A stretch of 64,000 bases of DNA, taken from assembly GCA_934131005.1 (NCBI GenBank), contig CAKOYV010000007.1:6689-70688 (forward strand), written 5' to 3'. Shown piece after piece: positions 7,077 through 34,541 of this stretch. Both the position numbers and the translations under genes were made by a program. Origin of the DNA: an uncultured Bacilli bacterium. Lineage in GTDB: Bacteria > Bacillota_I > Bacilli_A > RF39 > UBA660. Positions within the stretch are counted from its first letter, which is position 1. Every line of letters starts with the position of its first letter. The notes under the pieces are model-generated. The model was not told where the DNA came from. It ran no database searches and was given only the letters and a program-made list of their open reading frames with translations.

Positions 7077-7080
7077 ATAA

Positions 7081-7560
7081 TTAGCACCTTAATTCTTTTA
7101 AGATAGAATATACTTCGTACAAAAATGCTACTAAAATTGGAAAAATAATAATTACTAAATATCCCCATTTAGATTCAAGAATTGATAAAAGATTTCCAAG
7201 AAAAGGGATAACAATACTATTGTTACTAATACCAATTAAGAATTTTTTATCAACAACTGTATCATCAATAACAACACTATCTTTATTAATGCTATTAATT
7301 GTTCCCGTTTGAATATAATATTTTTTTCCTCTAGATACATAATAAAATACTTTCATTTTTTCTTTATAAGTACTTTTATTATTCACAATAACTAAATCTC
7401 CTTTATTATAAGTTTCAGTTTTATCATTTTTTACAATTATCAAAGTATTATTATTAAATTCTGTAGTGTTATAGTCATTGTATGCTAATAAACATATTGT
7501 GGTAATTACTGCTACTACAGTATAAATAATAATTATAATATGGCTAATTTTCTTTTTCAT
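7081..7560 (-). CDS. SipW-like signal peptidase paralog 3, apparently degenerate (catalytic Ser/His motifs not found)
   Basis: Same architecture as the other SipW paralogs: N-terminal TM, GDLVIV box, C-terminal TM YLVIIIFPILVAFLYEVY. Lacks the S-M/L-E/V-P and T/Y-H motifs present in the other three. Confidence 0.45.
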   Translation of the reverse strand: MKKKISHIIIIIYTVVAVITTICLLAYNDYNTTEFNNNTLIIVKNDKTETYNKGDLVIVNNKSTYKEKMKVFYYVSRGKKYYIQTGTINSINKDSVVIDDTVVDKKFLIGISNNSIVIPFLGNLLSILESKWGYLVIIIFPILVAFLYEVYSILKELRC

Positions 7561-7762
7561 AACTACTATACCTCTCCTACTTTCTCCTATTTAAGTATAG
7601 CACATCTATACTAACATTGTAAATAAAATATGCTATGCAAGTAAAAAAATAAATTTTCACATAGATTTTTATTGAAAGTGCACAATTAATGTGCAATAAG
7701 TTTTAGAAACATATATAATATCTTCTTAAGCAATTTATTTGTCATTAAGGAGGTATTGAAAA

Positions 7763-8640
7763 TGACAAATTATTCTCATTTGTCTTATGAAGATAGAAAA
7801 AAATATTGAAGATGGATTAAATGAAAATAAATCCATAAATCAAATTGCTAAAGAATTATGTAGAAATCATTCTACACTCTTAAGGAAAATAGATAGAAAC
7901 AAAAAACATTTGGAACCATCCATCAACCTAGAATAATTATAAAATTAATCATCCTGATATTTTGGATTTCAGCAAAAGCTCTTTTTATCGTTATATTAAA
8001 AATGGAATTTTTGAATTGGTCTTTTAGATTTTCTGAGAATTGTTAAATATAAAAAAAGAAAAAAATCAAGCCAAAGAAGAACAAAAAAAGAACGTGAAAT
8101 ATAGATACTGTTGAAAGTTTACAAATTGTTTCCTTACATTACTTTGAAGAAAGTTTAAATTCATGCTTATATTTAAGTTAGAATTCCAAACAACTGATAA
8201 AGTAACAAGAATTTTTAAAGTATTATAAACTCTTATTCCTTTAGATATTTATAAAAGTTTATTTCAAATTATTCTTACTTACAATAGTCACGAACTTTTT
8301 GATGTTAGTAATATTGAATGTATTCATTCAACTGGTAAATATGTTCCTCATCTATTTTTGGGTAATTCGCAAGCTTCTAGTCAAAAAAGTTTCATTGAAA
8401 AAAATCATGAATTCATTAGATATATTTTACCTAAAGGTCCTCTTTCAAAAATATTACTCAAGAAGACTGTAATTTAATTATGAATAATATTAATTCATTA
8501 TGTAGAGATTCATTGAATAGCAAATCACCTTATGAAGCAATGCTATTCTTATGTGATGAAGATATATTAAAACTATTAAACTGCCATTATATTGAACATG
8601 ATAGTGTTAATTTATCAAATAATTTATTAAAACAAAAATA
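7763..8640 (+). pseudogene. IS30-family transposase remnant (multiple frameshifts/stops)
   Basis: MTNYSHLSYEDRKKY* / IEDGLNENKSINQIAKELCRNHSTLLRKIDRNKKH matches the IS30 N-terminal HTH (M.Y.HLT.EER..I......S...IA..L.R..ST..RE..RN). Later fragments NIDTVESLQIV (DDE region) and SLNSKSPYEAML (IS30 C-terminal ...R.CLG.KTP.E) appear in different frames. Confidence 0.5.
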
Positions 8641-8724
8641 ATTATAACTCAAACTATATTTATTCTTACGGCAAACAAATTGTCATAAATCCAATACTAT
8701 TTAACAAATCAAAGACACCAGTTT

Positions 8725-9309
8725 CTAATTATCAACAATTTTACTAGAATCAACATTTAGCTCAACTAATTCTATATTATCTTGATAAATAGCATCTTCA
8801 TCACTTTCATTAAAATAAATTAGTAAAGTATATGTATTTACCTTGGGTGTAGAAAAATATAATTTTTCTTTATTAAAAGTAAATTCTTGAAAATAAGTAC
8901 CGTCATCATCTTTTTCTATTACACTATTGTTATCATTAATTAAATTTACACTACTACTATCTCGATAATCACTATTTAAATACAATTTATATTGTAGTGG
9001 TAAATTTGTAGTAGTTCTAATTTTTAGAACATACTCAATATCAACATCACTTATCTTACTTTCTTTTTGATTAGAAATAGTAAAATTATAGACATATGGC
9101 TCGCTTCTTGGTACTAAATCACTTATTTTTATACTTTTATTTAACTTTCCAACTTCTAATAGATAAAAAGCTATACTAGTATCTACATTTCCTATTCCAG
9201 ATGATTGATATTTAGAAAAAGTTACCGGAAGAAATTTAATCAAGATTAATAAGAATAAAAACAAAATGTTAATTTTAGAAATAAGAAGAAATTTCTTTTT
9301 ACTAAACAT
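8725..9309 (-). CDS. Small secreted TasA-like protein (cassette 2 substrate)
   Basis: N-terminal signal-like hydrophobic segment with TFSKY motif. C-terminal LLIYFNESDED...IELVELNV resembles the family C-terminal motif. Lies immediately downstream of the SipW 9321..9911 gene. Confidence 0.45.
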   Translation of the reverse strand: MFSKKKFLLISKINILFLFLLILIKFLPVTFSKYQSSGIGNVDTSIAFYLLEVGKLNKSIKISDLVPRSEPYVYNFTISNQKESKISDVDIEYVLKIRTTTNLPLQYKLYLNSDYRDSSSVNLINDNNSVIEKDDDGTYFQEFTFNKEKLYFSTPKVNTYTLLIYFNESDEDAIYQDNIELVELNVDSSKIVDN

Positions 9310-9320
9310 AATATCCCTCC

Positions 9321-9911
9321 TTATTTATCTTTTAAAATAGGTATTTCTATTTCCTCTTCTTTTTTCTTTTTAATTCTTTTTTCTTTCTGTTTTTGTATTT
9401 TTTTTCTTTTAGTTTTATTATTATAGGAGAAAGTAAAACTAAATAATACTAAAGTAATAGTTAATAACGTAAACACCTTTGGAGTCATTAATACCTTTTT
9501 CCATATCCCAAATCTAGGTATTACTAAGACCACCTTTCCTAAAACATTCTCTTTTTTTACTTTTGCATCTTTGCTGTTATTAGCATCCCCCTTAGTAGTT
9601 ATTGTCTTACTGTCTATTTGAATTACTCTATGGGTTATAAACTCTTTATTTAAATTATAAGTTATTATATCTTTTTCTTGATAAGTACTATTTAATTTAA
9701 CAATTACTAAATCATTTTTATAAACAGCTGGCTCCATAGAACCACTAGCAATTTCAAAATAAGTATAACCAAAAAGACTTACATAGTCTTTTTTTTGAAT
9801 ATTTAAAGAAATATAACTATAAGTCATAAAAATAATTATTATGCTTATCAAGAATATTAAAATGTAGGTAATAATATTACCTATTTTATCTATTACTTTC
9901 ATCTTTATCAT
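9321..9911 (-). CDS. sipW: SipW-type type I signal peptidase (canonical motifs), paralog 2
   Basis: EIASGSMEPAVYKNDLVIV (SGSMEP catalytic Ser box), FITHRVIQ (His box), N- and C-terminal TM helices, K-rich C-terminal tail. 4-nt overlap with the upstream gene. Confidence 0.7.
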   Translation of the reverse strand: MIKMKVIDKIGNIITYILIFLISIIIIFMTYSYISLNIQKKDYVSLFGYTYFEIASGSMEPAVYKNDLVIVKLNSTYQEKDIITYNLNKEFITHRVIQIDSKTITTKGDANNSKDAKVKKENVLGKVVLVIPRFGIWKKVLMTPKVFTLLTITLVLFSFTFSYNNKTKRKKIQKQKEKRIKKKKEEEIEIPILKDK

Positions 9912-10507
9912 CCTTTAGCACTATATTGATATACATTAACATGAATAGGCAAATTAATTTTAGTATCAGCTTTAGAACCTAATTCATAATCAGCTAAGTT
10001 ACTTTCTTCATTATCATTATCTTCCCAAACTAATTCAATTTTAATATCATACTTTTCTTTGTTCTTTATCTCTTTAAGATGAGCTATTCCTTGATAAGTA
10101 TTTTCACTTACCAAAGAAAATTCATGCCCTCCCACTTCACTAACAGATGTAACTTTAATTCCTGATTTGTTAAAAACTTCTGTATCAATTACTATTCTAT
10201 ATAAAAAAGAAGTATCTGTTGTCGAAGGATCAATTATGACATCAAAACTCCCAACTGAACCTGGGGCTCCCTTACCTTCTCTAACATGATTAGCATTACT
10301 CCAATTAATACTCGTCAAATCAAATTCTTCATCTTCTGTCGTTAAAGACGTTAGATAGGTATCTCCTACTCTGATTTTCCACCTAGCAAGTGCTATTGAA
10401 GGCGAATCAGTGATACCACTTTCAAATAACGAGTATGTTTGAGATAGCTGAAAAATTAGAACAAAAAGACCTATTAAAGTCATGGTGAAAAGAAAATACT
10501 TTTTCAT
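9908..10507 (-). CDS. Small secreted TasA/camelysin-like protein (cassette 1 substrate)
   Basis: Signal peptide ending QTYSLF. ARWKIRV motif shared with the 25029..25664 protein. C-terminal ELVWEDND...INLPIHVNVYQ family motif. Confidence 0.5.
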   Translation of the reverse strand: MKKYFLFTMTLIGLFVLIFQLSQTYSLFESGITDSPSIALARWKIRVGDTYLTSLTTEDEEFDLTSINWSNANHVREGKGAPGSVGSFDVIIDPSTTDTSFLYRIVIDTEVFNKSGIKVTSVSEVGGHEFSLVSENTYQGIAHLKEIKNKEKYDIKIELVWEDNDNEESNLADYELGSKADTKINLPIHVNVYQYSAKG

Positions 10508-11044
10508 CTAGGCCTCTTTTAAATTGCGTTTTACTTCAAGAATGAATTCATATAATTCATATAAGAAGATAAATAAAACTGGTAGTATGATTACAAGCAA
10601 GAATATCCATCTTGATGATAATATTTTTAAAATACTTCCTATTTTATGATAAATAACAGTGTTTTTAGTTGAACCTATTACATATTCACTAGAATATTCA
10701 TAATTTCCTTCAATTTCATAAGTTGTTTCTGTATTAGTAATTTTTCTTTTAGAAATAACTTTTGCTAAATTAACAATAACAGTATTTTTTTCTTTATTTT
10801 GTTCATAGAAAAAGATAGAATCATTAGAGGTAATATCATCATTACCTGTATCTGTTACTACTAATAAATCACCCTTTTTATAGGCAGGTTCCAGTGAATT
10901 ATCCGAAACAATTATAAAGCTTTTATCTCCTATTTCAGTTATTCCATATTTATTATAATTTAATAAGCATATTGTCATTAATATTACAACTAACATGTAA
11001 GGAATTAAGATGATTCCTCCTAGTATCTTTAATATTTTTTTCAT
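10508..11044 (-). CDS. SipW-like type I signal peptidase, paralog 1
   Basis: N-terminal TM, SDNSLEP (Ser box variant), GDLLVV, VIYHK (His), C-terminal TM. Abuts the downstream substrate gene. Confidence 0.55.
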   Translation of the reverse strand: MKKILKILGGIILIPYMLVVILMTICLLNYNKYGITEIGDKSFIIVSDNSLEPAYKKGDLLVVTDTGNDDITSNDSIFFYEQNKEKNTVIVNLAKVISKRKITNTETTYEIEGNYEYSSEYVIGSTKNTVIYHKIGSILKILSSRWIFLLVIILPVLFIFLYELYEFILEVKRNLKEA

Positions 11045-12988: not shown

Positions 12989-15900
12989 TTATTTTATAAT
13001 TATATATTTTACTACTTCTCCAACATAAGTGTTATTATCATATAAAAGAAATTTGATTTGGTATGTACCTGTTTTTAATTTATCTTTTAGATTTAATATA
13101 TATTGGAAGCGACTGTTAGGACTATCCATTACTAAATATTCATTTGCTGTGTTAGAGGTTTTTAAAGTATCTGTAACATAATCTTGTAAATTTACTTTAG
13201 TATAACTATATTTATAAATATCTGTATAGGTTCTTCTATATAATGCTACACGAATGCTAGGTTTCTTTAAGTTAGATTCATATTCTAAATTAAAATCTAA
13301 CATTTTACTTTTATTTGAAGTTCTTCCCGTTTTAGCATCTACATAATTATCAGCATCATCCATAGAAACTGATAAACCAAAGTTTTCATTGACAATAGTT
13401 ACTTCTTTGCTGATAGTAGTGGATGGCGCTAAGCCATAATAAATTCCATCTGCCGATCCAAACGTTTCTATTTTTAAGTGATATTCTCCACTAGGGATAT
13501 TACTGTTTGTTGTATCTATAGTAATTTTACTTGATACATTAGCAACCGATTCTGCAATATTAAATCTTACCGTTCCATCTTGTCTAGGAAAATAATTAAC
13601 ACCTTCATAGATGAATTTTGTACCCAACAAGGTTGCTCCGTTGACTAAATTATCTTCACTGTCATATAATGATAGTCTTATTCCTAATTTTTGGTTATAG
13701 AAATTAGTATCAATAATATTTATACTTCCTGTTTTTTGTTGGTCAAAATTAGTTATTACGTTTAATTCTACAGAAGAACCTACGTATATGGTATCATTAC
13801 TTAAAGTAGCTTCTGCATCAATAATAGCATCTTTTCCTTTATATAAGTTGTAAGTCATTTTTTGTTGAGCAATATCTAATACTGGTATTACAGGATTGTC
13901 ATTTTTATCTCTTAATTCCATTAGTAAGTTTTTCTTCAGGACAGTAGCATCTATATTTGCTTCTTTCAAATCTACATTAAAGATAAATTCTTCTTCTGCT
14001 TTTTTATTGGTACTATCATAGTACCTATTATTAGCATCACTATCACTATAAGTATTATTAGCACTTGAACTACCCATTTTAATAAATCTAGAGAACGGAT
14101 AACTGATTTCTCCTTCGGTATAAAGTTCATTTAGGCTATTTTCATAATCTTCTTTACTAATTACATAATAATAATATTCTGGTTTATCACTACTAGCAAA
14201 GTCAATCATTGTAATTTTAGTATTTTTAGGTAAGGCATAATTAGAAACTAGACTTCTGTAATAGCCATCTTTATATGGAGTAAAATTACTTTTTTTAAAT
14301 AGCGAAAAATAAGTACTGAAGGTACTGGTTGAAGTAATATGAACATTACTATTAGCGAACATTTCATATTGATCTCCTACCGTTATAGCTCCTTCATAGT
14401 TATCTCCATCATATAATGCTGATGATAAATTTACTTGAATGTTTACTCTTTGTATTTTACTATTTAAATCATCAATAGGTGTTGATACCATCAAAGAAAT
14501 TGTAACACTACCTAAATCAGCAGAAACATTTAAGTTTTTAGAGTGATATAGATAGAAAATAAAACTTGGTATCGTGGAAGAATTTTCACTTTTATAGGTT
14601 GTAGTTCCTTTTACTTCACTTCCCTTTTGAGTGATAAATTCTGTATCACCTTTGGTAATCCATCCGTTTGTTCCTGTTTTTATGGATAATCCAAAATTTT
14701 TGTTGGCTTCTTCTGTAGTTTTTGCATATCTTGGAATATCTTCGCTTGAAAGTAGTTCTATATTACTAGATAAGTTATCGTAATTAACTCCTAGAACATG
14801 AAATTCTGTATTAGGTTGATAATAGTTAAGTAATTGTAATTCATATGTTCCCAGAGTAGAATATTTAGATGCTGTTAGAGATAGGTCAATTACTTCAACT
14901 GACTCTCCTACTACCCATCTATAGTAGATGGTATCATTAGGTGTTGGCTCTATATAATCTTGTTTTATTGTAGTTCCATTTTCTTCTGGATAATTGGTAT
15001 AAAAGCCATCTTTATAATAGTTATGATTTTCTTTATGTTGCCCCATGACATAGCTTCCAGTTGAGAAATGATAAATTTCTGAACCACTAATCGTATCACC
15101 ATAATTGTATTTATCTGAATATAGGGCTGTTGTTATTTTTCCATTTCTATCTTTAGTAAACATTCCGAAGAATGTCATTCCACTTACTTCTCCATAGGTT
15201 GCTAATGATTCATCATCAGAGATGTTTAGGTTTTTGCCTTCTAGCATGTAAATACGATTTTCACCATTCTTGGCCACTTTTTGGTTTTCTTTGTCAATGG
15301 TTACTTCGACATTTTTTTCTTTTCCATCAATATCAACTAGACTGGAATATTTTTCTAGAAGGTTTGTTCCTTTATTTAAATATAATACTGAGCCATTCTT
15401 TAGTTTTAGATGTTTTATTCTACTAAAGGTAAATAATTCATTTTTATATTTGTTAGTTCTATCAGTTGCTCCTAATAATTCTATGGCACTGTTATTTAAG
15501 GTAACTACATCTGCTCTTTGGATTGAGACGTTTGTTTTGTAATTATCTCCATTACCATAATTATTGATATTTACATAGCTATAACCACCTGATGATGAGG
15601 CATTTCCACTACCCAAGATTGAGCCTGAAATTATATAATTGGTGTGCTTAGAAGCATCTATATTTATGTTAATTCCTTTTGTAACACTAATAAATTTAAA
15701 GTCATAGTCGACACTACCACTGGCATTTGCTTCTCCTCCTCCAAAAACAGTCCCTCCTATTATGATATCATCTTTTTGGTAATCAGTAGCATCTTCAATG
15801 GTATTAATTCCAATATTCACGTAAGTTTCTCCATAAACAACCGAGGTATTCGCTCCACCATAGACGTTTCCTAAGATAGTTGCTCCTGCTATATTAACAT

Positions 15901-18900
15901 AGCTTTTAGCACTATTTTTATTGGTACAAGTTATTGCATCACCTGATGACGTAAAGTCATTTTCACATCCTGTAGCAGCAGCATTTCCTCCTCCAAATAG
16001 GTGTTTTGTGATTACTGTTTTTCCAGATACATCTACTTCATTTCCAGTTACAACGACAGCTGTTTTACCGTTGCCACCGGCATGAACACTTTCTCCTATG
16101 GTACTATCGGTAATTTTGGTTATAGCATTACCTAGAACTGCTCCATCATTGCCACCTCCATAGGTATTTCCTGAGATAGTGGCATTTTTTATTAAAACAC
16201 TTGTATCTCCATCTACTAAAGCAGCATTTCCTCCTCCATAGATATCTCCTTTAACTGTAGTTTTATCTAAGATGTTTAGAGAAGTGTCTTTTAATATACT
16301 AGCCTCATTCCCTCCTCCATAGATAGCTTTTAGAATAGTAGCATTAGTAGTTGTAACGTTAGGTTTATTTGTAACTGCTTTGTTTCCTCCTCCATAGATT
16401 GAACCATAACTTCCACTAGTTAAGTTAATATTACTAGTTTTAGTTAATCCACCTTCATTATTTCCACCATACATATTATTAACATATAAATCATTATAAT
16501 AAATTGTTTTAGTATCTGTTCCATCTGAATTATGACCTACTAATATATAACCTACAATTTGAAAATCAGAATAGTCTACGTAAGAATGAATACAAAATTC
16601 AAAAGAATGAGTTGAATTTGCTGATAAAGCATTTGCACCATACCATTGATTTGTTTGGTTGGAATGAAATACACCATTAATTTCTTCAACATTCGTTCCT
16701 GACCAGTTAGAGTCAAAAACAGCATCAGTGGTTATTAAGTAAAAATCCCAATTAGTATAACTTGTTGTTGAAGCATTGTGAAGAGTAACATTAATTTTTT
16801 CACTAGATTTTATTCCTAATGGATTGGTTTGGTTTACAGTACTAGTATCGAAAGAAACATCTGCATATAAGTTACTATTACTTTCTAATTCTTGAGGTGT
16901 ATTTTTTATATTAGTAGTAGTAACATTTCCTAATACATTAGAACCTCCAAAAATATTTTTTATATATCCTTTATTTAAATTTAAATGTGTAGTAATAACA
17001 CCAGCACTTTTTCCTCCTCCAAATAAATAATCTATTTTTCCATGAATTATATTTAGATTTGAGGTAGTTGTTTCTGCTTCTAGTCCTCCTCCATAAATGG
17101 AAGTAATAATACCACCTGTTACTGTTACATTAGAGTTTACGGTTGTTCCTCCCAAATTATTTCCTCCATAGACACTGTCTGCTATGCCGTCATTTATGTT
17201 GATATAACTAGTATGAACAGTTCCTTTTTGGTCAGATCCCCCAAAAACATTGGTAGCTCTGTTATTTAAATTAACATTAGTTGCAGAAACGATATCCGTC
17301 TCTCGACCGCCTCCATATACATCGGTAACATCTCCTCCATCTATTGATACATTACTTGTATTAGTTGTTCCTCCAATGTTATTTCCACCGTAAACATTTG
17401 TTACTTTACCTGATTTTACATTAACATTACTAGTTGTAACATCTCCACTTGTATTAGACGCACCAAATAAGTTAGTAACTGTCCCTCCATTTAATAAAAC
17501 ATGACTGATATCAACTTTTGCTTGATTACCTCCGCCATATCCATTAGTGGTAGTTCCTCCATAAAAATTAATGTTTGGTTCGCTTACTTCTGTTTGATTT
17601 CCTCCTGCATAGGCATTTGTTATTTTTCCTCCATGAACATTTACAGTTACACTTCCATTTGGAGTTCCCCTTTGATCGGATCCGCCATAAACATTGTCAA
17701 TTATTCCACCTTTAATATCAACAGCGACATTACCTAGAACATAAGGTGTATAAGTACCATTACCTTCTCCTCCTCCAAAAACGCTATTTATCGTTCCAGA
17801 TAATACTTCAATATTCGTATTTTTAGAAGAAATGGTTGTTGAATTACTTGCTCCGTTAACTGTACCAAAAGCACTTCCTCCATAGATAGCATTTTCTATT
17901 TTTAAGTTTTCATTACTCTCATTTTCTATCCCTGTTATAATTTTTACTTCTCCTGTTACAAAAGTACCTGGACTTGATGATGATTGATATCCACCTTCTC
18001 CTCCTCCATAACAAGAAGTTCTGACTGTACCTGATAAGAGATTTAGAGCAACATCTCCATAAACTGTTCCTTTAGTTCTTGAACCTCCATAGATAGATCC
18101 TTCTACCAATCCTCCATTTAGAGTTATATTTACTTTAAATTCTTTACTAGAGGTACTTGCTCCATTATTATTTCCCCCACCATAAACATTTCCTTTTATA
18201 GTACCTCCTAATAGAGAAATATTGCTATAATTTGAATTACTGCTACTATTAATTCCAGTAGCCCCGTAGTTTCCTCCTCCATAGACATTTCCTAAGATAG
18301 TCGCGTTAGAATCTACAATAATTGTTGAATTATCATTAGTCCCAATTGAATCAGTACCTGATTTACCATTACCAATCCCAAAGACTGATCCTGCTTCAGC
18401 ATTCCACAGTTTAGTTCCATTATTTACATTATCTTCCTTACCAATAACAGCATTTCCTCCTATATAGATAAATGAACTACCTGATAATTTACCATCTCCA
18501 TCAGAACCTATGTAACCATTAGAGCCTCCAAAAATTTGATAATTAACAACTCCACCAGTTACTGCTATGATTCTATTTCCATAAGTGGTACTAAGTCCCG
18601 CACCTCCTACTATTGCATCAACTTCTCCTCCTGTTATATACATATATATATCATTTAGACTATCTCGATTATCACTAGAAGTTGGTCCCCCTATTAGATT
18701 ATAAATCCATCCCCCTTCAACTTTAACTTTTTTTGGAGCATAATGATCTCCATATCCTCTACCACCAACATAGATACCTGTTGCATAATCTGATTTTCCT
18801 GATCCAAATTTCCCACTTTTTACAACAAAATCAAAGATTAGACTAGTAGTTGTATTAGTGGCATAATAATTACCTCCACCCCAGCTTGATGAAGCACAAA

Positions 18901-20644
18901 AATTAATATCGAGGTTATTATTGTTTTTTGTTACTTTATCATAATCATTCCCATATATAGCCTTACTATTTAAGTATCTTGAAGAACTATTACTATACGA
19001 GGCATTTGCTAAGGATATAGAATTATAAAAGCCACTTTCTATAATAACTTTATATTTAGTAGGATTACTAACACTACCTGTAGAAGATCCTCCTCCCCAG
19101 TAATTGCCACTATTATTATTATCTCCTGCTATAATAGCATTAAAAGTTTTATAACTACCACTTTGTACAATACCTCTACCTATTCTTACATTATGATAAT
19201 TACCATAAAAGTATTTTGAATTACTAGTACCACTAGAAGGACTACTACTATTATTACCAGTATTAGAATTTATCTTGATATTTTCTATGTTTACATCACT
19301 ATAAGCATGATAAGCGTTGCTAGAAACATCCCATGTAACATTATCTCGATAAGAAGTTCCATTATATATACTAGTTAAGGTATAAGGTTTGTTTTGACTA
19401 CTAGAAGGAACACTACTAGTATTAGATTGCATAACAATAATATTGGTATCTCTTGTTGCTAGATAATAATACTCATTATCACTAGAAGATACGATAACAT
19501 TACCATCGTTATCATAATATTGCATTAATTCATAATATTCACACCCATTATAATTATTACATGTTCCACTTTCTTGATATTCTCCTGTATCACTATAATA
19601 GCCACTAATAGATGAATATCTATCAATTGTAACTTTCTTGTAATAACCACTTACTATTATTCCATCATCAAACCCTGGTAAATTTTCATAGCCAGTAATT
19701 TGTGGAGTATAGACTTGCATCTGATTATTCCAACCACCAGTTGATAATTTATAATAAGTAACACTTGAATCATAATTATTTTCTGTAACTTTAGAATAAT
19801 AAGTACATCCATTCCTGTTACGACATTCGTCTCCAGATATATCATTTCCATATCTATCATAAGCATTATCTGGATAATACGTTTTACTCCACCAGCTACC
19901 ACTACTAGTAACAGTTTTTTGAGTATAAAGCCCTGTTATATCTTCATAGACAGCAACTTTCCCCCCTATTTTAACCATTCCTTTATCTTTTAATTTGTTA
20001 AAAGTACTTGACCATTGATTGGAAGTAGAAGTAATTTTTCCTACATCAGCAGTTACCCAATTAGCATGAAAAGTTATTTTTATATTACTTGTATCTGTTA
20101 CTGGTATTTTAGCATGTCTTTCATAATAATTATCATTATATTGAATAGTTACTCCTTTATAGTCTGTAACCCATCCATTGAACCCTTTATCGATTGGTCT
20201 ATCTGTAAAAGGATTTTCTATTAAGGTTATATCTATATATCCATCATTTATTGGATATACTTTATAATACTTATAAGTATTTTGTCTTTCAGTTAAGCTA
20301 ACATAACCTACTAAAGTATTATCATTAATATCAGTTCCATCATAAGTAATTTCAACATTCACTAGATTTTTTTCGTTATAAATATTTTGATTTTCTCCAC
20401 TTGGTAAGGAGCCCGTTGAACTTGCAGTATAATTTAAACTTTCATAATAATTATAATCACTTTCGGTTTCATCTACTATAACCATATTATCGAATACACC
20501 ACTGTTATTTTCTACTTCTGATAGTGTTGTTGTAGTTGTATATTCGCTATAAGTTAATGCATAAGTAGTGATAGAAGCAATTACTATAAGTGCTAATATT
20601 ACTGTTAGTAAAATTTTGCTTGTTTTATTATTTTTTCTTTTCAT
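12989..20644 (-). CDS. Giant (2551 aa) secreted surface protein with central parallel beta-helix-like (x)YGGGN repeats and a TasA-type signal peptide
   Basis: N-terminus K-rich, then hydrophobic core ILLTVILALIVIASITTYALTY. Dozens of ~20-22 aa repeats (NVYGGGN / SIYGGS / LFGGGN ...T.T.SNV.V) across residues ~640-1330. Paired Cys motifs (CRNRNGCTYY, CNNYNGCEYY). Ser/Thr/Asn-rich overall. Confidence 0.7.
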   Translation of the reverse strand: MKRKNNKTSKILLTVILALIVIASITTYALTYSEYTTTTTLSEVENNSGVFDNMVIVDETESDYNYYESLNYTASSTGSLPSGENQNIYNEKNLVNVEITYDGTDINDNTLVGYVSLTERQNTYKYYKVYPINDGYIDITLIENPFTDRPIDKGFNGWVTDYKGVTIQYNDNYYERHAKIPVTDTSNIKITFHANWVTADVGKITSTSNQWSSTFNKLKDKGMVKIGGKVAVYEDITGLYTQKTVTSSGSWWSKTYYPDNAYDRYGNDISGDECRNRNGCTYYSKVTENNYDSSVTYYKLSTGGWNNQMQVYTPQITGYENLPGFDDGIIVSGYYKKVTIDRYSSISGYYSDTGEYQESGTCNNYNGCEYYELMQYYDNDGNVIVSSSDNEYYYLATRDTNIIVMQSNTSSVPSSSQNKPYTLTSIYNGTSYRDNVTWDVSSNAYHAYSDVNIENIKINSNTGNNSSSPSSGTSNSKYFYGNYHNVRIGRGIVQSGSYKTFNAIIAGDNNNSGNYWGGGSSTGSVSNPTKYKVIIESGFYNSISLANASYSNSSSRYLNSKAIYGNDYDKVTKNNNNLDINFCASSSWGGGNYYATNTTTSLIFDFVVKSGKFGSGKSDYATGIYVGGRGYGDHYAPKKVKVEGGWIYNLIGGPTSSDNRDSLNDIYMYITGGEVDAIVGGAGLSTTYGNRIIAVTGGVVNYQIFGGSNGYIGSDGDGKLSGSSFIYIGGNAVIGKEDNVNNGTKLWNAEAGSVFGIGNGKSGTDSIGTNDNSTIIVDSNATILGNVYGGGNYGATGINSSSNSNYSNISLLGGTIKGNVYGGGNNNGASTSSKEFKVNITLNGGLVEGSIYGGSRTKGTVYGDVALNLLSGTVRTSCYGGGEGGYQSSSSPGTFVTGEVKIITGIENESNENLKIENAIYGGSAFGTVNGASNSTTISSKNTNIEVLSGTINSVFGGGEGNGTYTPYVLGNVAVDIKGGIIDNVYGGSDQRGTPNGSVTVNVHGGKITNAYAGGNQTEVSEPNINFYGGTTTNGYGGGNQAKVDISHVLLNGGTVTNLFGASNTSGDVTTSNVNVKSGKVTNVYGGNNIGGTTNTSNVSIDGGDVTDVYGGGRETDIVSATNVNLNNRATNVFGGSDQKGTVHTSYININDGIADSVYGGNNLGGTTVNSNVTVTGGIITSIYGGGLEAETTTSNLNIIHGKIDYLFGGGKSAGVITTHLNLNKGYIKNIFGGSNVLGNVTTTNIKNTPQELESNSNLYADVSFDTSTVNQTNPLGIKSSEKINVTLHNASTTSYTNWDFYLITTDAVFDSNWSGTNVEEINGVFHSNQTNQWYGANALSANSTHSFEFCIHSYVDYSDFQIVGYILVGHNSDGTDTKTIYYNDLYVNNMYGGNNEGGLTKTSNINLTSGSYGSIYGGGNKAVTNKPNVTTTNATILKAIYGGGNEASILKDTSLNILDKTTVKGDIYGGGNAALVDGDTSVLIKNATISGNTYGGGNDGAVLGNAITKITDSTIGESVHAGGNGKTAVVVTGNEVDVSGKTVITKHLFGGGNAAATGCENDFTSSGDAITCTNKNSAKSYVNIAGATILGNVYGGANTSVVYGETYVNIGINTIEDATDYQKDDIIIGGTVFGGGEANASGSVDYDFKFISVTKGININIDASKHTNYIISGSILGSGNASSSGGYSYVNINNYGNGDNYKTNVSIQRADVVTLNNSAIELLGATDRTNKYKNELFTFSRIKHLKLKNGSVLYLNKGTNLLEKYSSLVDIDGKEKNVEVTIDKENQKVAKNGENRIYMLEGKNLNISDDESLATYGEVSGMTFFGMFTKDRNGKITTALYSDKYNYGDTISGSEIYHFSTGSYVMGQHKENHNYYKDGFYTNYPEENGTTIKQDYIEPTPNDTIYYRWVVGESVEVIDLSLTASKYSTLGTYELQLLNYYQPNTEFHVLGVNYDNLSSNIELLSSEDIPRYAKTTEEANKNFGLSIKTGTNGWITKGDTEFITQKGSEVKGTTTYKSENSSTIPSFIFYLYHSKNLNVSADLGSVTISLMVSTPIDDLNSKIQRVNIQVNLSSALYDGDNYEGAITVGDQYEMFANSNVHITSTSTFSTYFSLFKKSNFTPYKDGYYRSLVSNYALPKNTKITMIDFASSDKPEYYYYVISKEDYENSLNELYTEGEISYPFSRFIKMGSSSANNTYSDSDANNRYYDSTNKKAEEEFIFNVDLKEANIDATVLKKNLLMELRDKNDNPVIPVLDIAQQKMTYNLYKGKDAIIDAEATLSNDTIYVGSSVELNVITNFDQQKTGSINIIDTNFYNQKLGIRLSLYDSEDNLVNGATLLGTKFIYEGVNYFPRQDGTVRFNIAESVANVSSKITIDTTNSNIPSGEYHLKIETFGSADGIYYGLAPSTTISKEVTIVNENFGLSVSMDDADNYVDAKTGRTSNKSKMLDFNLEYESNLKKPSIRVALYRRTYTDIYKYSYTKVNLQDYVTDTLKTSNTANEYLVMDSPNSRFQYILNLKDKLKTGTYQIKFLLYDNNTYVGEVVKYIIIK

Positions 20645-29678: not shown

Positions 29679-30992
29679 TTATTTTATTAAAGTTATTCTA
29701 GCATAACCATTCCCCTTTTTAGCATACCCACTAATTGCATCATCAGATACATTAGTGGTAGATATAGTTTTAGTATCCTCCGCAGCAGATTCAAGGCAAT
29801 TATAGCAATACATAACTTTATTAGTTAAAAGTGAATTCCCTATATAACCAGAACCACCGCCTCCGCCACCTGCTAAATCAGAAGAACCGCCTCCATAAAA
29901 ACCAATTCCACCTTGCCCGCCACCATCACCGCCACTAGTTTTCCCGCCTACTCCAAACATACCATTTTTAATAGAAACAGTGCTACTTCGAGAATCTATA
30001 GCCGTAGATTGGCCACCACTTACTTGGCTTCCACCCATAGCAGTAGGAATAATAGATTGCCAATCAACTATATCATTTTTTAAAAAACCTTGAGCCCCAG
30101 AATTTCCAATATAACCACCACCTGAACCACCAATTCCATCATACCATTCAGAACCACCACCACCACCTGATACAATTAATATTTTTGATAAATCATTTTC
30201 AAAATTATTCAAAGTATCTGATTCAGTAGTTATATATGTGGCACCTCCGCCACCCGGTGCTGTACCCCCTCCATGATCATTTTCTGAAAATCTTCCAACA
30301 TTTACAAAAATATTCCCATATTCCAATGATACATTACCATTGGAATAACCACCTACTCCACCTTCTATTTTATTATTATCCCAACCTCCACCTTGTGCAC
30401 CCCAAGTTTCTAATTTATAATCACCACTTACTGGTACAACAAAATCTTGCTCTCTACCTACATAATCAAAATCGATTGTTTCAATACTAACATTTTCATT
30501 ACTAGAAACTTCTTCACTACCTATAGTTGATGATTGTTCACTAGTCGCATAAATATATCCTGAAAAACTTTTATTATCAAACTGACCATTAGATATTTCT
30601 GAATCTATCCATAAATAAACTTGATAGCTTTTAGGATTACTAGTTAAAGGAACTACTGCTAATAAACTATCTCCTTTAGTTGTAATAGTTCCATTATATT
30701 CAATTTTATCTTCCGTTATTAATTTATATTTCAAAGCTTTAATACTCTCTATAAGTGCTGTTATACTATCATTAACATGCAAATAAATATTCACATAACT
30801 ATAAATCTTACAATCCTCACTTTGAGATAAAGTAATCGTACTCTTAGCCCCTTCTAAATAATTAGTTGTACTACTAAGATTACTAGCATTTATCTCTTCT
30901 CCCTGATAATTTATTCCATTACACTTAGCACTTCCAGCAACAGAAGTATTTTTTTTCATCTCTAAATATGCATAAGTTCCACTAGTTACCAA
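29679..30992 (-). CDS. Glycine-rich secreted paralog 1 (body ORF); its signal-peptide leader is out of frame because of a poly-G(9) tract
   Basis: Body starts ...VTSGTYAYLEMKKNTSV, i.e. the TasA-type SGTYAYL cleavage-region motif without its n- and h-regions. The upstream ATG (31095-31093, minus) encodes MKNNYKLKVNSGGG and stops. The 9-G tract (plus-strand C's 31055-31063) sits between them. Confidence 0.6.
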   Translation of the reverse strand: MVTSGTYAYLEMKKNTSVAGSAKCNGINYQGEEINASNLSSTTNYLEGAKSTITLSQSEDCKIYSYVNIYLHVNDSITALIESIKALKYKLITEDKIEYNGTITTKGDSLLAVVPLTSNPKSYQVYLWIDSEISNGQFDNKSFSGYIYATSEQSSTIGSEEVSSNENVSIETIDFDYVGREQDFVVPVSGDYKLETWGAQGGGWDNNKIEGGVGGYSNGNVSLEYGNIFVNVGRFSENDHGGGTAPGGGGATYITTESDTLNNFENDLSKILIVSGGGGGSEWYDGIGGSGGGYIGNSGAQGFLKNDIVDWQSIIPTAMGGSQVSGGQSTAIDSRSSTVSIKNGMFGVGGKTSGGDGGGQGGIGFYGGGSSDLAGGGGGGSGYIGNSLLTNKVMYCYNCLESAAEDTKTISTTNVSDDAISGYAKKGNGYARITLIK

Positions 30993-31054
30993 AACTGCAT
31001 AGCAAAATATTCCTGCAATTATTAAGCCAATTCTCTTTAATTTAAGACTTTTGA

Positions 31055-31063
31055 CCCCCCCCC
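31055..31063 (-). repeat. Poly-G(9) (plus-strand poly-C) homopolymer in the leader of paralog 1: candidate slipped-strand phase-variation switch
   Basis: With 8 (or 11) G the upstream ATG joins the body in frame: MKNNYKLKVNSGGVKSLKLKRIGLIIAGIFCYAVLVTSGTYAYLE.. (n-region, h-region, SipW-type motif). With 9 G translation terminates after 17 codons. Confidence 0.65.
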
Positions 31064-31187
31064 GAATTAACTTTTAGTTTATAATTATTTTTCATAAATA
31101 TACCTCTTATCTTTATCATATCTATTTATCATTTTACCAAAAAATAATAAAAAAATAAACAAGAAATATAAAATTTCCCATTTATTG

Positions 31188-32555
31188 TTATTTTATTAAT
31201 GTGATTCTAGCATAACCATTACCCTTTTTAGCATACCCACTAATTGCATCATCAGATACATTAGTCGTAGATATTGTTTTAGTACTAACATCACTTGATT
31301 CTACGCACTCATAACAATACATAGATTTATTGGTTAAAAGTGAATTGCCTATGTAACCCGAACCTCCACCAGCACAATTAGTCCATGATGTTTCACCACT
31401 TCCCATAGAACCACCATAATATCCACCTCCACCACCAGATTTACCATCAGTTGGCGAATCAGAAACACCATCTTCTCCTTGACCAAATTTATAGCCAAGT
31501 TGCTGAGTACCACCTATACCGGCTTTTCCTGGGTAAGATTGGCTACCTATTGCACCGCTATTTCCTTGGAATCCACCACCGGCACCTCCTAAACAATAAC
31601 CACCACCAGGAACATGAGCAGATGTCCCGCCTCCTCCACCGGCAACGATTAAGATTTTATTTTTTGAGTTTTCTAGAGATGACAAAGTTCCAGAAATAAT
31701 TGAAATATCAGTGGCACCTCCACCATTAGCATAATAAATTCCAGAACCTCCACCATTATAACCCCTTGGAATAACAGTAGAATAATCCATATTTGTATCA
31801 ATAAAAGTATCTCCTCCTCCTCCAATATTCAAATAAAGTTTTTCAAATTCATTTAAATTGACATAGCCAATTGAATAAGCACCATAGCCTCCATCTCTAA
31901 TGTAATAAGTATTACCACCCGTTTCAGTATTTTTATTAACACCGCTTCCACCTTGTGCTCCCCAAGTTTCTAGCTTATACTTCCCACTTACAGGTGTCAT
32001 AAACTCTTGCTCTCTACCTACATAATCAAAATCAATCGTTTCAATACTAACATTTTCATTATTGGAAATTTCCCCACCATCTATAGTAGATGATTGTTCA
32101 CTAGTCGCATAAATATATCCTGAAAAACTTTTATTATCAAACTGACCATTAGAAATTTCTGAATCTATCCATAAATAAACTTGATAGCTTTTAGGATTAC
32201 TAGTTAAAGGAACTACTGCTAATAAACTATCTCCTTTAGTTGTAATAGTTCCATTATATTCAATTTTATCTTCCGTTATTAATTTATATTTCAAAGCTTT
32301 AATACTCTCCATAGGAGCTGTTATATTATCATTAGTATGCAAATAAATATTCACATAACTATAAATCTTACAATCCTCACTTTGAGATAAAGTAATCGTG
32401 CTCTTAGCCCCTTCTAAATAATTAGTCGTACTACTAAGATTACTAGCATTTATCTCTTGCCCCTGATAATTTATTCCATTACATTTAGCACTTCCAGCAA
32501 CTGAAGTATTCTTTTTCATCTCTAAATATGCATAAGTACCACTAGTTACTAACAA
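31188..32555 (-). CDS. Glycine-rich secreted paralog 2 (body ORF); leader out of frame via poly-G(9) at 32615-32623
   Basis: N-terminal 185 aa and C-terminal ~45 aa nearly identical to paralogs 1 and 3, with a different Gly-rich core. Upstream ATG 32655-32653 encodes MRNDYKLKVNSGGG then stops. With 8 G it reads ...GVKSLKLKRIGLIIVGIFCYALLVTSGTYAYLE. Confidence 0.6.
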   Translation of the reverse strand: MLVTSGTYAYLEMKKNTSVAGSAKCNGINYQGQEINASNLSSTTNYLEGAKSTITLSQSEDCKIYSYVNIYLHTNDNITAPMESIKALKYKLITEDKIEYNGTITTKGDSLLAVVPLTSNPKSYQVYLWIDSEISNGQFDNKSFSGYIYATSEQSSTIDGGEISNNENVSIETIDFDYVGREQEFMTPVSGKYKLETWGAQGGSGVNKNTETGGNTYYIRDGGYGAYSIGYVNLNEFEKLYLNIGGGGDTFIDTNMDYSTVIPRGYNGGGSGIYYANGGGATDISIISGTLSSLENSKNKILIVAGGGGGTSAHVPGGGYCLGGAGGGFQGNSGAIGSQSYPGKAGIGGTQQLGYKFGQGEDGVSDSPTDGKSGGGGGYYGGSMGSGETSWTNCAGGGSGYIGNSLLTNKSMYCYECVESSDVSTKTISTTNVSDDAISGYAKKGNGYARITLIK

Positions 32556-32614
32556 TGCATAACAAAATATTCCTACAATTATTAAGCCAATTCTCTTTAA
32601 TTTAAGACTCTTGA

Positions 32615-32623
32615 CCCCCCCCC
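32615..32623 (-). repeat. Poly-G(9) tract in the leader of paralog 2
   Basis: Same TTGACCCCCCCCCGAATTAACTTTTAGTTTATAAT context on the plus strand as at 31051 and 34168. Confidence 0.65.
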
Positions 32624-32741
32624 GAATTAACTTTTAGTTTATAATCATTTCTCATAAATATACCTCTTATCTTTATCATATCTACCTACTATTTTACCAA
32701 AAAGCAAGAAAAAAATAAACAAGAAATATCAATTTTCCTAT

Positions 32742-34112
32742 TTATTTTATCAATGTAATTCTAGCATAACCGTTTCCCTCTTTAGCATATTCCCTAATTG
32801 CATCTTCAGATACATTAGTGGTAGATATAGTTTTAGTACTCTCATCAGCAGATTCTTCACAATTATAACAATACATAGACTTATTAGTTAAAAGTGAATT
32901 TCCTATATATGAAGAACCACCTGCACCAGAGCCTCCCCAGGAAGCACCGCCACCATAAAGTCCGCCTCCGCCTCCTCCAGAAACATTAGCAGAACCATTA
33001 ATAGTTGTGCCTCCACCTACACCAAAAATTCCATTTAACCATTTAGTTGCTAAATTACCATCTAAATTCCCTCCACCTGTACCACCAGACGTTTGAGTTC
33101 CACCAGTAGGATTTACATTAGCAAAATTTCTAACAGTTGAACTACCAACTATTCCACCACCTGAACCAGCATTGTCTTGAACATAACTCCACCAAGTGCA
33201 AGTACCACCTCCACCTGATGATAATATTAATATTTCATTTTTTAATAAATTATTCACAGTCTGTTTTGCAATTGAAATATGTGTTGAACCACCACCTGAA
33301 GAATAAGTTATATTATTTGCATCATCTCCACTACTACGAATAGCACCTCCATTTGGATAACCATAGGCAATTCCTTTATCTTTACCATTATTTAAATTCT
33401 GCCCTTTTCCTCCAACATAAACATACTCAGTCATATTTTTAGTTAAAGAAATAGTTCCAACAGCATATGCTCCATAACCGCCATGATATTCACTAGAATC
33501 ACTAGCACCTTGTGCACCCCAAGTTTCTAATTTATAATCATCGTTTACTGGTACAATAAATTCTTGCTCTCTACCTACATAATCAAAATCAATCGTTTCA
33601 ATACTAACATTTTCATTATTAGAAATTTCTTCACTACCTATAGTAGATGATTGTTCACTAGTTGCATAAATGTATCCTGAAAAACTTTTATTATCATACT
33701 GACCACTAGAAATTTCTGAATCTATCCATAAATAAACTTGATAGCTTTTAGGATTACTAGTTAAAGGAACTACTGCTAATAAACTATCTCCTTTAGTTGT
33801 AATAGTTCCATTATATTCAATTTTATCTTCCGTTATTAATTTATATTTCAAAGCTTTAATACTCTCTATAAGTGCTGTTATACTATCATTAACATGCAAA
33901 TAAATATTCACATAACTATAAATCTTACAATCCTCACTTTGAGATAAAGTAATCGTACTCTTAGCCCCTTCTAAATAATTAGTTGTACTACTAAGATTAC
34001 TAGCATTTATCTCTTCTCCCTGATAATTTATTCCGTTACATTTAGCACTTCCTGCAACTGAAGTATTCTTTTTCATCTCTAAATATGCATATGTTCCACT
34101 AGTTACTAACAA
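32742..34112 (-). CDS. Glycine-rich secreted paralog 3 (body ORF); leader out of frame via poly-G(9) at 34172-34180
   Basis: Upstream ATG 34212-34210 encodes MKNNYKLKVNSGGG then stops. With 8 G it reads ...GVKNIKLRRVNLIIVGIFCYALLVTSGTYAYLE. Conserved N- and C-terminal domains with a distinct Gly-rich middle. Confidence 0.6.
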   Translation of the reverse strand: MLVTSGTYAYLEMKKNTSVAGSAKCNGINYQGEEINASNLSSTTNYLEGAKSTITLSQSEDCKIYSYVNIYLHVNDSITALIESIKALKYKLITEDKIEYNGTITTKGDSLLAVVPLTSNPKSYQVYLWIDSEISSGQYDNKSFSGYIYATSEQSSTIGSEEISNNENVSIETIDFDYVGREQEFIVPVNDDYKLETWGAQGASDSSEYHGGYGAYAVGTISLTKNMTEYVYVGGKGQNLNNGKDKGIAYGYPNGGAIRSSGDDANNITYSSGGGSTHISIAKQTVNNLLKNEILILSSGGGGTCTWWSYVQDNAGSGGGIVGSSTVRNFANVNPTGGTQTSGGTGGGNLDGNLATKWLNGIFGVGGGTTINGSANVSGGGGGGLYGGGASWGGSGAGGSSYIGNSLLTNKSMYCYNCEESADESTKTISTTNVSEDAIREYAKEGNGYARITLIK

Positions 34113-34171
34113 TGCATAACAAAATATTCCTACAATTATTAAATTTACTCTCCTTAATTTAATATTTTTGA

Positions 34172-34180
34172 CCCCCCCCC
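34172..34180 (-). repeat. Poly-G(9) tract in the leader of paralog 3
   Basis: Nine consecutive C on the plus strand, counted directly in the sequence. Confidence 0.65.
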
Positions 34181-34464
34181 GAATTAACTTTTAGTTTATA
34201 ATTGTTTTTCATATCACACCTCTTACCTTCACGTTAGCTTAACATAATAATAACATATTTTGCCAAAAAGAAAAAGAGAAAGATAACTCCAATTAAAGCA
34301 TAGCAAAAGAGAGCTGAATTTTAGCTCTCTCACAAAGTTCGTTTATCATTAGTTTTTGGCCTCACCAACCCCACTTAACAAAGGGCCAAAAATAAGACCC
34401 CACTTCATAGATAGAAGTAGAGTCTAAATAACTAAATACATATTGTATTCAGATTAATCTCAAA

Positions 34465-34541
34465 TGGTGTCCCCGAGGTGATTCGAACACCTGACCGATC
34501 GCTTAGAAGGCGATTGCTCTATCCAGCTGAGCTACGGAGAC
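34465..34541 (-). tRNA. tRNA-Arg (anticodon TCT)
   Basis: Minus-strand sequence GTCTCCGTAGCTCAGCTGGATAGAGCAATCGCCTTCTAAGCGATCGGTCAGGTGTTCGAATCACCTCGGGGACACCA. 7-bp acceptor stem, D-loop AGCTGGATA, anticodon loop CTTCTAA, T-loop TTCGAAT, encoded CCA. Confidence 0.85.

Follow-up and report, generated by a model that had tools for sequence, protein, structure and literature searches.

Contingency loci that switch by slipped-strand mispairing are textbook matter in Neisseria, Haemophilus, Campylobacter, Helicobacter and the mycoplasmas, and as a strategy for evading immunity and phages they are familiar. To our knowledge, they have barely been documented in commensal gut Firmicutes and Bacilli, for which invertible promoters dominate the literature. 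In the pilus genes bbr_0113 and bbr_1889 of Bifidobacterium breve UCC2003, an intragenic G-tract acts as a switch through replication slippage (PMC9187656). The Opa genes of Neisseria carry CTCTT repeats in the region coding for the leader peptide, and their products combine a conserved framework with the hypervariable segments HV1 and HV2 (PMC3960869). The poly-G contingency loci of Campylobacter jejuni, whose genome has ~30% GC, switch surface-related genes by frameshifting, with tracts that are typically G8-G11 (PMC6097035). In Gp38 of T-even phages, which folds as a polyglycine-II (PGII) sandwich, glycine motifs serve as a scaffold and as proposed recombination hot spots, and variable segments set the receptor specificity (PMC12032242). 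Here we describe three tandem minus-strand paralogs, named g1, g2 and g3, that span positions 29679-34112 of a 64,000-nucleotide stretch of DNA (hereafter the window; assembly GCA_934131005.1, contig CAKOYV010000007.1) from an uncultured, spore-forming “Bacilli bacterium” of ~27% GC found in human gut samples. Our analysis makes it probable that they belong to a slipped-strand phase-variable, concertedly evolving family that presents alternative glycine-rich domains (GRDs) on a common carrier.

An earlier note on this DNA had described the three open reading frames (ORFs) as having conserved ends and a variable glycine-rich centre, and their coordinates, lengths and general organization are as it gave them. 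The listed ORFs, however, are truncated at the 5′ end. Each opens at an internal TTG within the hydrophobic segment of a signal peptide (M-L-VTSGTYAYLE...), and the true start is an ATG ~100 nt upstream, with the Shine-Dalgarno sequence AAGAGG located 6-7 nt ahead of it in every gene. From this ATG the frame begins MKNNYKLKVNS and then enters a run of nine G in all three genes. The ATG and the signal peptide are joined to the body of the gene (ON) when the number of G equals 2 modulo 3, which is the case for G8 and G11; with G9 or G10, translation terminates after 17-19 codons (17 with G9) and the gene is OFF. All three genes carry G9 and are OFF in the window. The product of the ON frame reads MKNNYKLKVNSGG(G)VKxLKLKRIGLIIxGIFCYAxLVTSGTYAYLEMKK..., and it opens with a canonical signal peptide that has both n- and h-regions. 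Apart from the three G9 tracts, which all lie at the same leader codon, no run of G or C in the 64 kb reaches 7; the number of G/C runs of at least 9 expected in a window of 27% GC is 0.0125. We conclude that a poly-G tract inside the coding region is the principal mechanism of variation. A scan for sigma-70 promoters and terminators returned nothing above the shuffle expectation; a conserved TGnTAAAAT, resembling an extended −10 element, can be read by eye ~36-45 nt ahead of each ATG. The coordinates of these and other features are collected in Table 1.

Table 1. Features of the three-gene locus and related features of the window.
Feature	Position	Strand	Remarks
g1 ORF as listed	29679-30992	-	437 aa
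g2 ORF as listed	31188-32555	-	455 aa
g3 ORF as listed	32742-34112	-	456 aa
g1 full gene	29679..31095	-	ATG 31095-31093 to stop; G9, OFF here; ON forms 470/471 aa (P0468, P0472, P0474)
g2 full gene	31188..32655	-	ATG 32655-32653 to stop; G9, OFF here; ON form 488 aa (P0480, P0485; NSGGVK)
g3 full gene	32742..34212	-	ATG 34212-34210 to stop; G9, OFF here; ON form 489 aa
g3 signal-peptide coding region (MKNNYKLKVNSGG[G]VKNIKLRRVNLIIVGIFCYALLVTSGTYA)	34086..34212	-	Equivalents: g2 32529-32655, g1 30969-31095
Poly-G tract of g3 (signal-peptide n-region)	34172..34180	-	G9; G8 in L045 and L046
Poly-G tract of g2	32615..32623	-	G9; G10 in L002, L004 and L045
Poly-G tract of g1	31055..31063	-	G9 in each directly read g1 tract; 470/471-aa products reveal ON states
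N-terminal carrier domain of g3	33639..34085	-	~150 aa; equivalents: g2 about 32082-32528, g1 about 30522-30968
ALK/LTK-type GRD (PF12810) of g3, core and tail	32745..33596	-	121 bits, profile 9-243 of 243; equivalents (approximate starts): g2 31191-32039, g1 29682-30479
Variable core of g3 GRD	32922..33506	-
Variable core of g2 GRD	31368..31949	-
Variable core of g1 GRD	29859..30389	-
tRNA-Arg(tct) directly upstream of g3	34465-34541	-	Also L040 6792-6868, L043 6791-6867
SipW/archaeal-type signal peptidase I	9321..9911	-	TIGR02228, 73.7 bits (cutoff 51.85); NF046067 SipW below cutoff; Peptidase_S24

The tract lengths, which were read from consensus metagenome assemblies, differ between strains that are otherwise nearly identical. 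A locus from a Hadza gut metagenome (L045) is 99.97% identical to the window across 13,258 bp, and the differences consist of two single-nucleotide polymorphisms (SNPs) and two single-G indels. Both indels fall within the tracts, one removing a G at 34180 (g3 becomes G8) and the other adding a G at 32623 (g2 becomes G10). The g3 allele identical to that of the window thus occurs in frame as P0147 (489 aa, G8), on L045 and L046. Among 39 tracts of the same species, 28 are G9, six are G10, four are G8 and one is G11. The same locus in different samples gives 10,9,9 (L043) and 10,9,8 (L044), a paralog with a Flg_new payload is G8 (ON) in L036 and G9 (OFF) in L037, and a paralog with a Laminin_G payload in L040 is G11 and in frame. 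When products were clustered at 90% identity, ON forms were found on 3 (g1), 2 (g2) and 4 (g3) contigs and truncated forms on 44, 43 and 41, respectively, so that ON forms make up 9/137. The in-frame products of the G8 and G11 alleles have 489, 488, 471 and 403 aa, and the ON products of 470/471, 488 and 489 aa all start with M(K/R)N(N/D)YKLKVNSGG... One member of the g1 cluster (P0472, 470 aa) is in frame by another route, NSGGGSLKLK.

Two other species, with proteins that are ~50% identical, have the tract in the same place of the leader; its lengths there are 6-10, and ON and OFF states are mixed (L006, L007, L038, L016, L022, L027). Four tandem genes in L038 carry G10, G9, G8 (ON, P0024) and G9, the genes in L006/L007 carry G10 (ON), G6 and G9, and contigs of ERZ1643249 carry G9c (ON), G8 (ON) and G9 (OFF). 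A scan of genome contigs with the N-domain, the region that follows the signal peptide, matched a single metagenome-assembled genome (“uncultured Firmicutes bacterium”, L006/L007). The leader pattern also matched JGI metagenomes and viral contigs, mostly by chance in unrelated DNA of higher GC; L016, L022 and L027 were the only relatives among these matches.

The three genes have diverged to very different degrees along their length. Protein identity among them is 93-96% in the N region (aa 1-202), 39-43% in the core of ~190 aa, which has 46-75 gap columns and a glycine content of 27-31%, and 85-87% in the tail formed by the last 55 aa. At the nucleotide level, the genes are 90-100% identical from ~120-150 bp upstream to the end of the first ~600 coding nt, 10-55% identical across the core and 75-87% identical over the final ~150 nt. 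In g3, the upstream conservation extends for ~117 bp only, and the conserved upstream 150 bp of the earlier note, in which it had included the poly-G, therefore stand in part, the poly-G itself being within the coding region. Synonymous (dS) and nonsynonymous (dN) divergence between the paralogs was calculated by the Nei-Gojobori method. The dS values are 0.13-0.19 for the N region, 0.83-1.65 for the core and 0.41-0.55 for the tail, which places the 5′ block 5-10 times below the core, and g1 and g3 show zero synonymous change across about 90 N-region codons. This mosaic pattern is real and is incompatible with a single, uniform old duplication, in agreement with the view of the earlier note that the trio did not arise by simple duplication. 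The tail combines its dS with a dN of ~0.09, which is consistent with purifying selection. In the core, 41 residues are identical in all three proteins, and 29 of these are glycine. The cores had been said to differ completely; they are indeed very divergent, but they remain alignable as homologous GRD sequence. Two His-, Leu- and Pro-rich ORFs of 82-84 aa run antisense to the GRD cores on the plus strand (30236-30490 and 31451-31699) and are most likely by-products of the glycine codons on the opposite strand, not genes.

Site patterns in which two paralogs agree against the third are clustered in the 5′ block (28 runs for 75 sites), and none of 10,000 permutations gave as few runs. Two near-identical strains, L001 and L003, differ from the window by 35-38 SNPs over 14 kb, all of which lie within three N-domain segments (33621-33955, 32080-32427 and 30594-30900), with zero in the flanking genes or the cores. 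The confinement of strain SNPs to the N-domain repeats indicates gene conversion. Furthermore, the two SNPs of L045 and L047 fall at homologous positions in g3 and g1, and the N-region dS is 0.13-0.19 among the paralogs of the window as compared with 0.30 between g3 and its core-orthologue in L042. The N-domains that carry GRD payloads are 90-96% identical regardless of the core type, and those that carry Laminin_G or Flg_new payloads form separate lineages with 76-87% identity. One protein, P0468, is a natural chimera of a g2-type leader and a g1-type core. Other strains have different cores between the same flanks (P0007-P0011), as the earlier note had anticipated, and the g3 core type is 87% identical in L042. 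A search for silent partial cassettes or extra copies of the leader by tblastn and blastn, in the 64-kb window and the fetched loci, found none and returned the three complete genes only. Of the recombinational shuffling that the note had suggested, conversion in the 5′ block stands, with its clustered sites and confined SNPs, and the sequence covered holds no silent cassettes that would point to programmed shuffling.

The core and the tail belong to one and the same domain. PF12810 (ALK_LTK_GRD) matches the three proteins from aa ~190 to the last residue with scores of 89.6, 116.6 and 121.3 bits (cutoff 24.5), and the alignment runs from profile position 7-9 to 243 of 243. The C-terminal 45 aa, which had been taken for an anchoring domain, are thus the conserved end of this domain. 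A start motif, DFDYVGxEQxFxxPxxGxYKLETWGAQG, is conserved, and the tail GGGGSGYIGNSLLxxKxMYCYNCxES..TKTISTT..AKxGNGYARITLI is kept across the wider family, including other species; this family-wide conservation points to structural constraint rather than to an anchor or a recombination flank. The consensus of the alignment holds the tail motif twice, consistent with proteins in other species that contain two GRDs. All three proteins end in ...GNGYARITLIK, and neither an LPXTG motif nor a hydrophobic or charged C-terminal tail is present in them. Across 16 diverse sequences, the invariant positions of the core are nearly all glycine, and this sequence pattern fits a glycine scaffold with variable segments between the glycines.

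An AlphaFold2 (AF2) model built from an alignment of 133 sequences (overall pLDDT 76.5) gives the GRD a pLDDT of 85-95. The 21 best Foldseek matches in the Protein Data Bank (PDB) are all GRD/TG structures of ALK, LTK or SCD-2, with a probability of 1.0 and E values of 6e-7 to 2e-4, which supports the expectation that the cores are structured and not mere low-complexity sequence. Searching the PDB sequences with the family profile (hmmsearch) likewise found C. elegans SCD-2 (7LIR, E 1.8e-7) and LTK (7NX0). A PDB search with the single GRD sequence gave only spurious matches to glycine linkers and was discarded. The same fold is common among phage tail-fibre and virion proteins, according to matches in BFVD. 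The phage GRD proteins in that database are auto-labelled “receptor protein-tyrosine kinase”, likely an annotation artefact that has spread from PF12810. Among the papers searched, PF12810 was mentioned solely in one on a fungal genome, and none dealt with a bacterial function of the domain.

The N-terminal domain has two conserved cysteines and the motifs TTNYLEG and SGYIYAxSxQSST. The AF2 model shows it as rich in β-structure (pLDDT about 70-80), with a disordered linker after it (aa 154-179). It has no match in Pfam or NCBIfam (E<=1-10), nor among PDB sequences by profile. An exhaustive profile search recovered 574 representative clusters at E<=1e-3, and in the best 150 of these 574 the domain is located N-terminally. 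It also stands alone in proteins of ~185 aa, and among 66 scanned proteins it is fused to Flg_new (16), DUF285 (5), Laminin_G_3 (5) and GRD (3), as well as to leucine-rich repeats (LRR) of the BspA type. It seems to be a generic N-terminal module that carries payloads of the adhesin type. In most inspected members of the family, (G/S/A)xTYA(Y/F/W) closes the hydrophobic stretch of the signal, and we place the putative cleavage site at this TYA-type end. The Foldseek matches outside the GRD were weak, namely the FimF/G pilin (E 7e-3) and the Ig domain of PAD4, and no TasA structure was among the 50 PDB matches listed. The suggestion of the earlier note that the N-domain is TasA-like was therefore set aside, being unsupported by Pfam (where no Peptidase_M73/TasA match was obtained), by NCBIfam, by the PDB sequence profile and by Foldseek; only the type of signal peptide resembles that of SipW substrates.

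Three complete genes make up the locus, each of them translatable on its own and coding for a predicted secreted protein of two domains. Each is laid out in the order of Shine-Dalgarno sequence and ATG, a short lysine-rich n-region, the poly-G coding for two or three glycines, the hydrophobic part of a SipW-type signal, the carrier, the disordered linker and the GRD. We propose that slipped-strand mispairing would alter the length of the poly-G and toggle each gene separately, and a cell would display none, one or several of the three alternative GRDs. The hypervariable segments between the glycine motifs would form the ligand-contacting surface, by analogy with the ALK/LTK GRDs and the phage Gp38 adhesins; the earlier note had likewise seen variable binding surfaces here, a reading that we uphold. 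The 5′ 750 nt, comprising the leader and the N-domain, would be held nearly identical by ongoing gene conversion, and this homogeneity would in turn supply the homology for swaps of whole payloads between loci and strains. The sequence data themselves establish the anatomy, the domain homology, the tract polymorphism between near-identical strains, its ON or OFF outcome in silico, the mosaic divergence and the purifying selection, and from these we infer the rate of switching within a clone, secretion and processing by a SipW-type peptidase, display and retention at the surface, and a binding function.

Several observations weigh against this proposal. The OFF state G9 dominates, both among the 39 tracts and in ~93% of contigs, in excess of the prediction for three neutral states. 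This excess could mean that the genes are expressed by transcriptional slippage or +1 frameshifting; in vivo selection for OFF, a mutational bias of the tract or homopolymer miscalling may also explain the predominance of G9. Because the tract lengths are assembly consensus, some contribution of homopolymer miscalls has to be allowed for. Metagenome contigs often end in or beside the paralogs (L002, L004, L005, L046, L048), consistent with assembly breaks induced by repeats, and hence the SNP clusters in the N-domains could in part be assembly chimeras between 95%-identical repeats. The TM-scores to the ALK/LTK structures are low, at 0.3-0.45. No anchoring motif was recognised (no LPXTG, and Pfam gives the GRD only), which leaves retention at the surface unexplained. 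Finally, we know of no bacterial GRD with a known binding partner.

The predominance of G9, which moreover occurs simultaneously in all three genes of most strains, bears directly on an alternative in which G9 is the functional resting state, with a low level of product being made constitutively by RNA-polymerase slippage or +1 frameshifting and the changes in DNA length being incidental. Homopolymer runs of at least 9 are known sites of RNA polymerase slippage, and the body ORFs are under purifying selection despite being nominally OFF; reframing at a G-tract is also discussed for B. breve (PMC9187656). Nevertheless, frame-restoring G8 and G11 alleles recur at the DNA level in independent samples. 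The OFF tracts of orthologues vary (G6, G9, G10), a variation incompatible with a single programmed recoding site, and the shift site has no obvious stimulatory element, stop or rare codon, the stop being three codons downstream. We regard this alternative as unlikely. It is very unlikely that the frameshifts are sequencing or assembly artefacts and that the genes are in frame, constitutive and plainly diverged paralogs. Poly-G is error-prone, the data are all metagenome consensus, and contigs often break in these repeats, but assemblies that come from three or more pipelines or naming schemes (MERR22/SAYO22 scaffolds, Hadza NODE contigs and k141 contigs) repeat the G9 call, and gene-specific states are reproducible, with G8 of g3 in two Hadza samples and G10 of g2 in three contigs. 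In addition, a synonymous interruption of the tract would be easy at 27% GC, yet the tract is kept across species at ~50% protein identity.

Since all three genes are frameshifted in the window and in most contigs, they might also be viewed as decaying pseudogenes from an old tandem triplication, the conserved flanks being due only to structural constraint that predated inactivation. We consider this exceedingly improbable. In every strain the bodies of ~1.4 kb are otherwise free of stops and frameshifts, the one lesion invariably falls in the poly-G tract and other samples have it reverted, and the low dS of the 5′ block relative to the core does not suit such a history. Moreover, orthologues have a dN/dS of 0.15 in the N-domain and of 0.31 in the core, indicating that the bodies are under purifying selection and therefore are not pseudogenes. 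Constant flanks around hypervariable cores, the many cores found between the same flanks in other strains and the evidence for gene conversion would also be expected from programmed cassette antigenic variation of the pilE/pilS or vlsE type, in which silent cores are copied into an expression site. This reading is highly improbable for the trio: each copy has its own Shine-Dalgarno sequence, ATG, signal peptide and full ORF, the 64 kb hold no partial core copies that lack a promoter, the conversion tracts detected are in the N-domain and not in the cores (in which neither L001 nor L003 has a single SNP relative to the window), and each core type is stable across strains, as seen for the g3 type in L042. 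The reading that we prefer thus remains phase variation of each complete gene by its own tract, with concerted evolution of the shared 5′ block.

A more far-reaching proposal concerns the carrier itself. Low-GC gut Bacilli might possess a new fibre of the donor-strand type, processed by SipW, with the N-domain as its subunit. The fused copies would then act as phase-variable tip or decorating adhesins, and the GRD cores as ligand-binding modules that share ancestry with the cytokine-binding domain of ALK/LTK and with the GRDs of phage tail fibres. The 574 clusters, with the domain N-terminal throughout the best 150 and often alone, the weak resemblance to Ig-like and pilin-like folds, the flexible N-terminal segment and the TYA-type end of the signal all point in this direction. 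We regard the fibre as possible but on balance doubtful. If true, it would amount to a “plug-in adhesin” system, modular in build and combinatorial in its ON/OFF display.

The window encodes a SipW-type peptidase ~20 kb from the trio, which is a candidate processor of the TYA-type signal peptides of g1-g3. Its gene lies in an operon-like cluster on the minus strand (6096-11044), together with degenerate peptidase-like paralogs (10508-11044 and 7081-7560) and small secreted proteins (9908-10507; 8725-9309, with a weak Ig-like_KY match; and 6096-7076), and this cluster possibly represents a module for secretion or for a TasA-like fibre. Beside it, also on the minus strand, is the gene for a secreted protein of 2551 aa (12989-20644) that has no Pfam or NCBIfam match and is rich in “YGGGN/GG” repeats. 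The signal peptide of this protein terminates in ...ASITTYALTYSE, resembling the TYA-type end, and an in-frame G6 run is located at 19961-19966. In the related strain L042 (6678-8942), a Peptidase_S24-type protein of 365 aa and a DUF5305 protein adjoin a giant Flg_new protein of 2459 aa near a GRD/DUF285 pair, which may be another SipW-like secretion cluster.

The gene content around the trio also differs between strains. The interval that runs from GerM and tRNA-Arg to ScpA holds three GRD genes in the window, a LamG gene and one GRD gene in L040, and other genes together with GRD and LamG genes in L043, which suggests that the interval from tRNA-Arg to scpA is a hot spot of recombination or integration. 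A second locus of the same species (L037 6334-12733; L036 1326-2564; L042 752-3965) contains further members of the family with the same leader and poly-G, namely two DUF285 proteins, a protein with another GRD core type (P0007) and a protein with the Flg_new payload.

The locus provides a clean in silico case of phase variation in an uncultured lineage of the human gut, with ON and OFF alleles visible across human samples. A single portable module, composed of the leader, the poly-G and the carrier domain, serves four or more classes of surface payload, and automated annotation systematically miscalls such genes as N-terminally truncated and devoid of a signal peptide. Bacterial GRDs of the ALK type gain a testable context as variable binding modules. 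Furthermore, the tracts may be used as markers of within-host selection, by IgA or phages, on an uncultured commensal through metagenomic reads.

How does the locus compare with known systems? The signal end of the three proteins (SGTYAYL, with a small residue and an aromatic residue after the hydrophobic stretch) is similar to that of the TasA/CalY-type SipW substrates of Bacillus, which is GGTFAFF-like; the two differ in the N-domain, for which Pfam and the 50 Foldseek matches gave no relation to TasA. The relation of the GRD to the TG domain of ALK and LTK (PDB 7LS0, 7NWZ, 7NX0, 7LIR), a ligand-binding module in receptors, is one of common family membership in PF12810 (89-121 bits). It is remote, with 14-19% identity; no kinase, EGF or MAM context surrounds the domain in the bacterial proteins, whose subfamily has its own conserved cysteine-containing tail, MYCYNCxES. 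Gp38 (PMC12032242) shares with the GRDs the arrangement of conserved termini that flank alternating glycine motifs and hypervariable segments and serves as a working analogy for the function of the core. It is a phage tail-tip protein with a different PGII arrangement and was absent among the Foldseek matches listed.

With regard to switching, C. jejuni (PMC6097035) is closest by the type of repeat, but its loci are unrelated genes, mostly for glycan-modifying enzymes, in another phylum and without a shared leader module. The Opa system (PMC3960869) is nearest in its logic, in that multiple complete genes are each switched by a repeat in the signal region and a conserved framework carries hypervariable segments (receptor-binding in Opa) that are diversified largely by recombination within and between genomes. 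Opa differs in having a pentanucleotide repeat and an outer-membrane β-barrel and in belonging to a Gram-negative pathogen, whereas here the repeat is a homopolymer, the genes are in tandem and the whole GRD core is variable. The nearest mechanistic precedent is the pilus G-tract of B. breve (PMC9187656). Both systems belong to Gram-positive gut commensals, in both the G-tract splits a short leading ORF that holds the start codon and the Sec signal from the long body, the reference sequence is OFF and a change in the number of G turns the gene ON, and in both the annotated internal start lacks a Shine-Dalgarno sequence and a signal peptide. The B. breve genes encode LPXTG pilins in a sortase operon of an actinobacterium, in contrast to the low-GC Bacilli described here, in which no sortase motif is present and a family of three paralogs at the locus (at least five genome-wide) combines a SipW-type signal with an unannotated carrier and GRD payloads. 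The strategy, that of phase-variable surface families driven by simple sequence repeats, is a known one, and in this lineage it is built from protein modules that are as yet uncharacterised.

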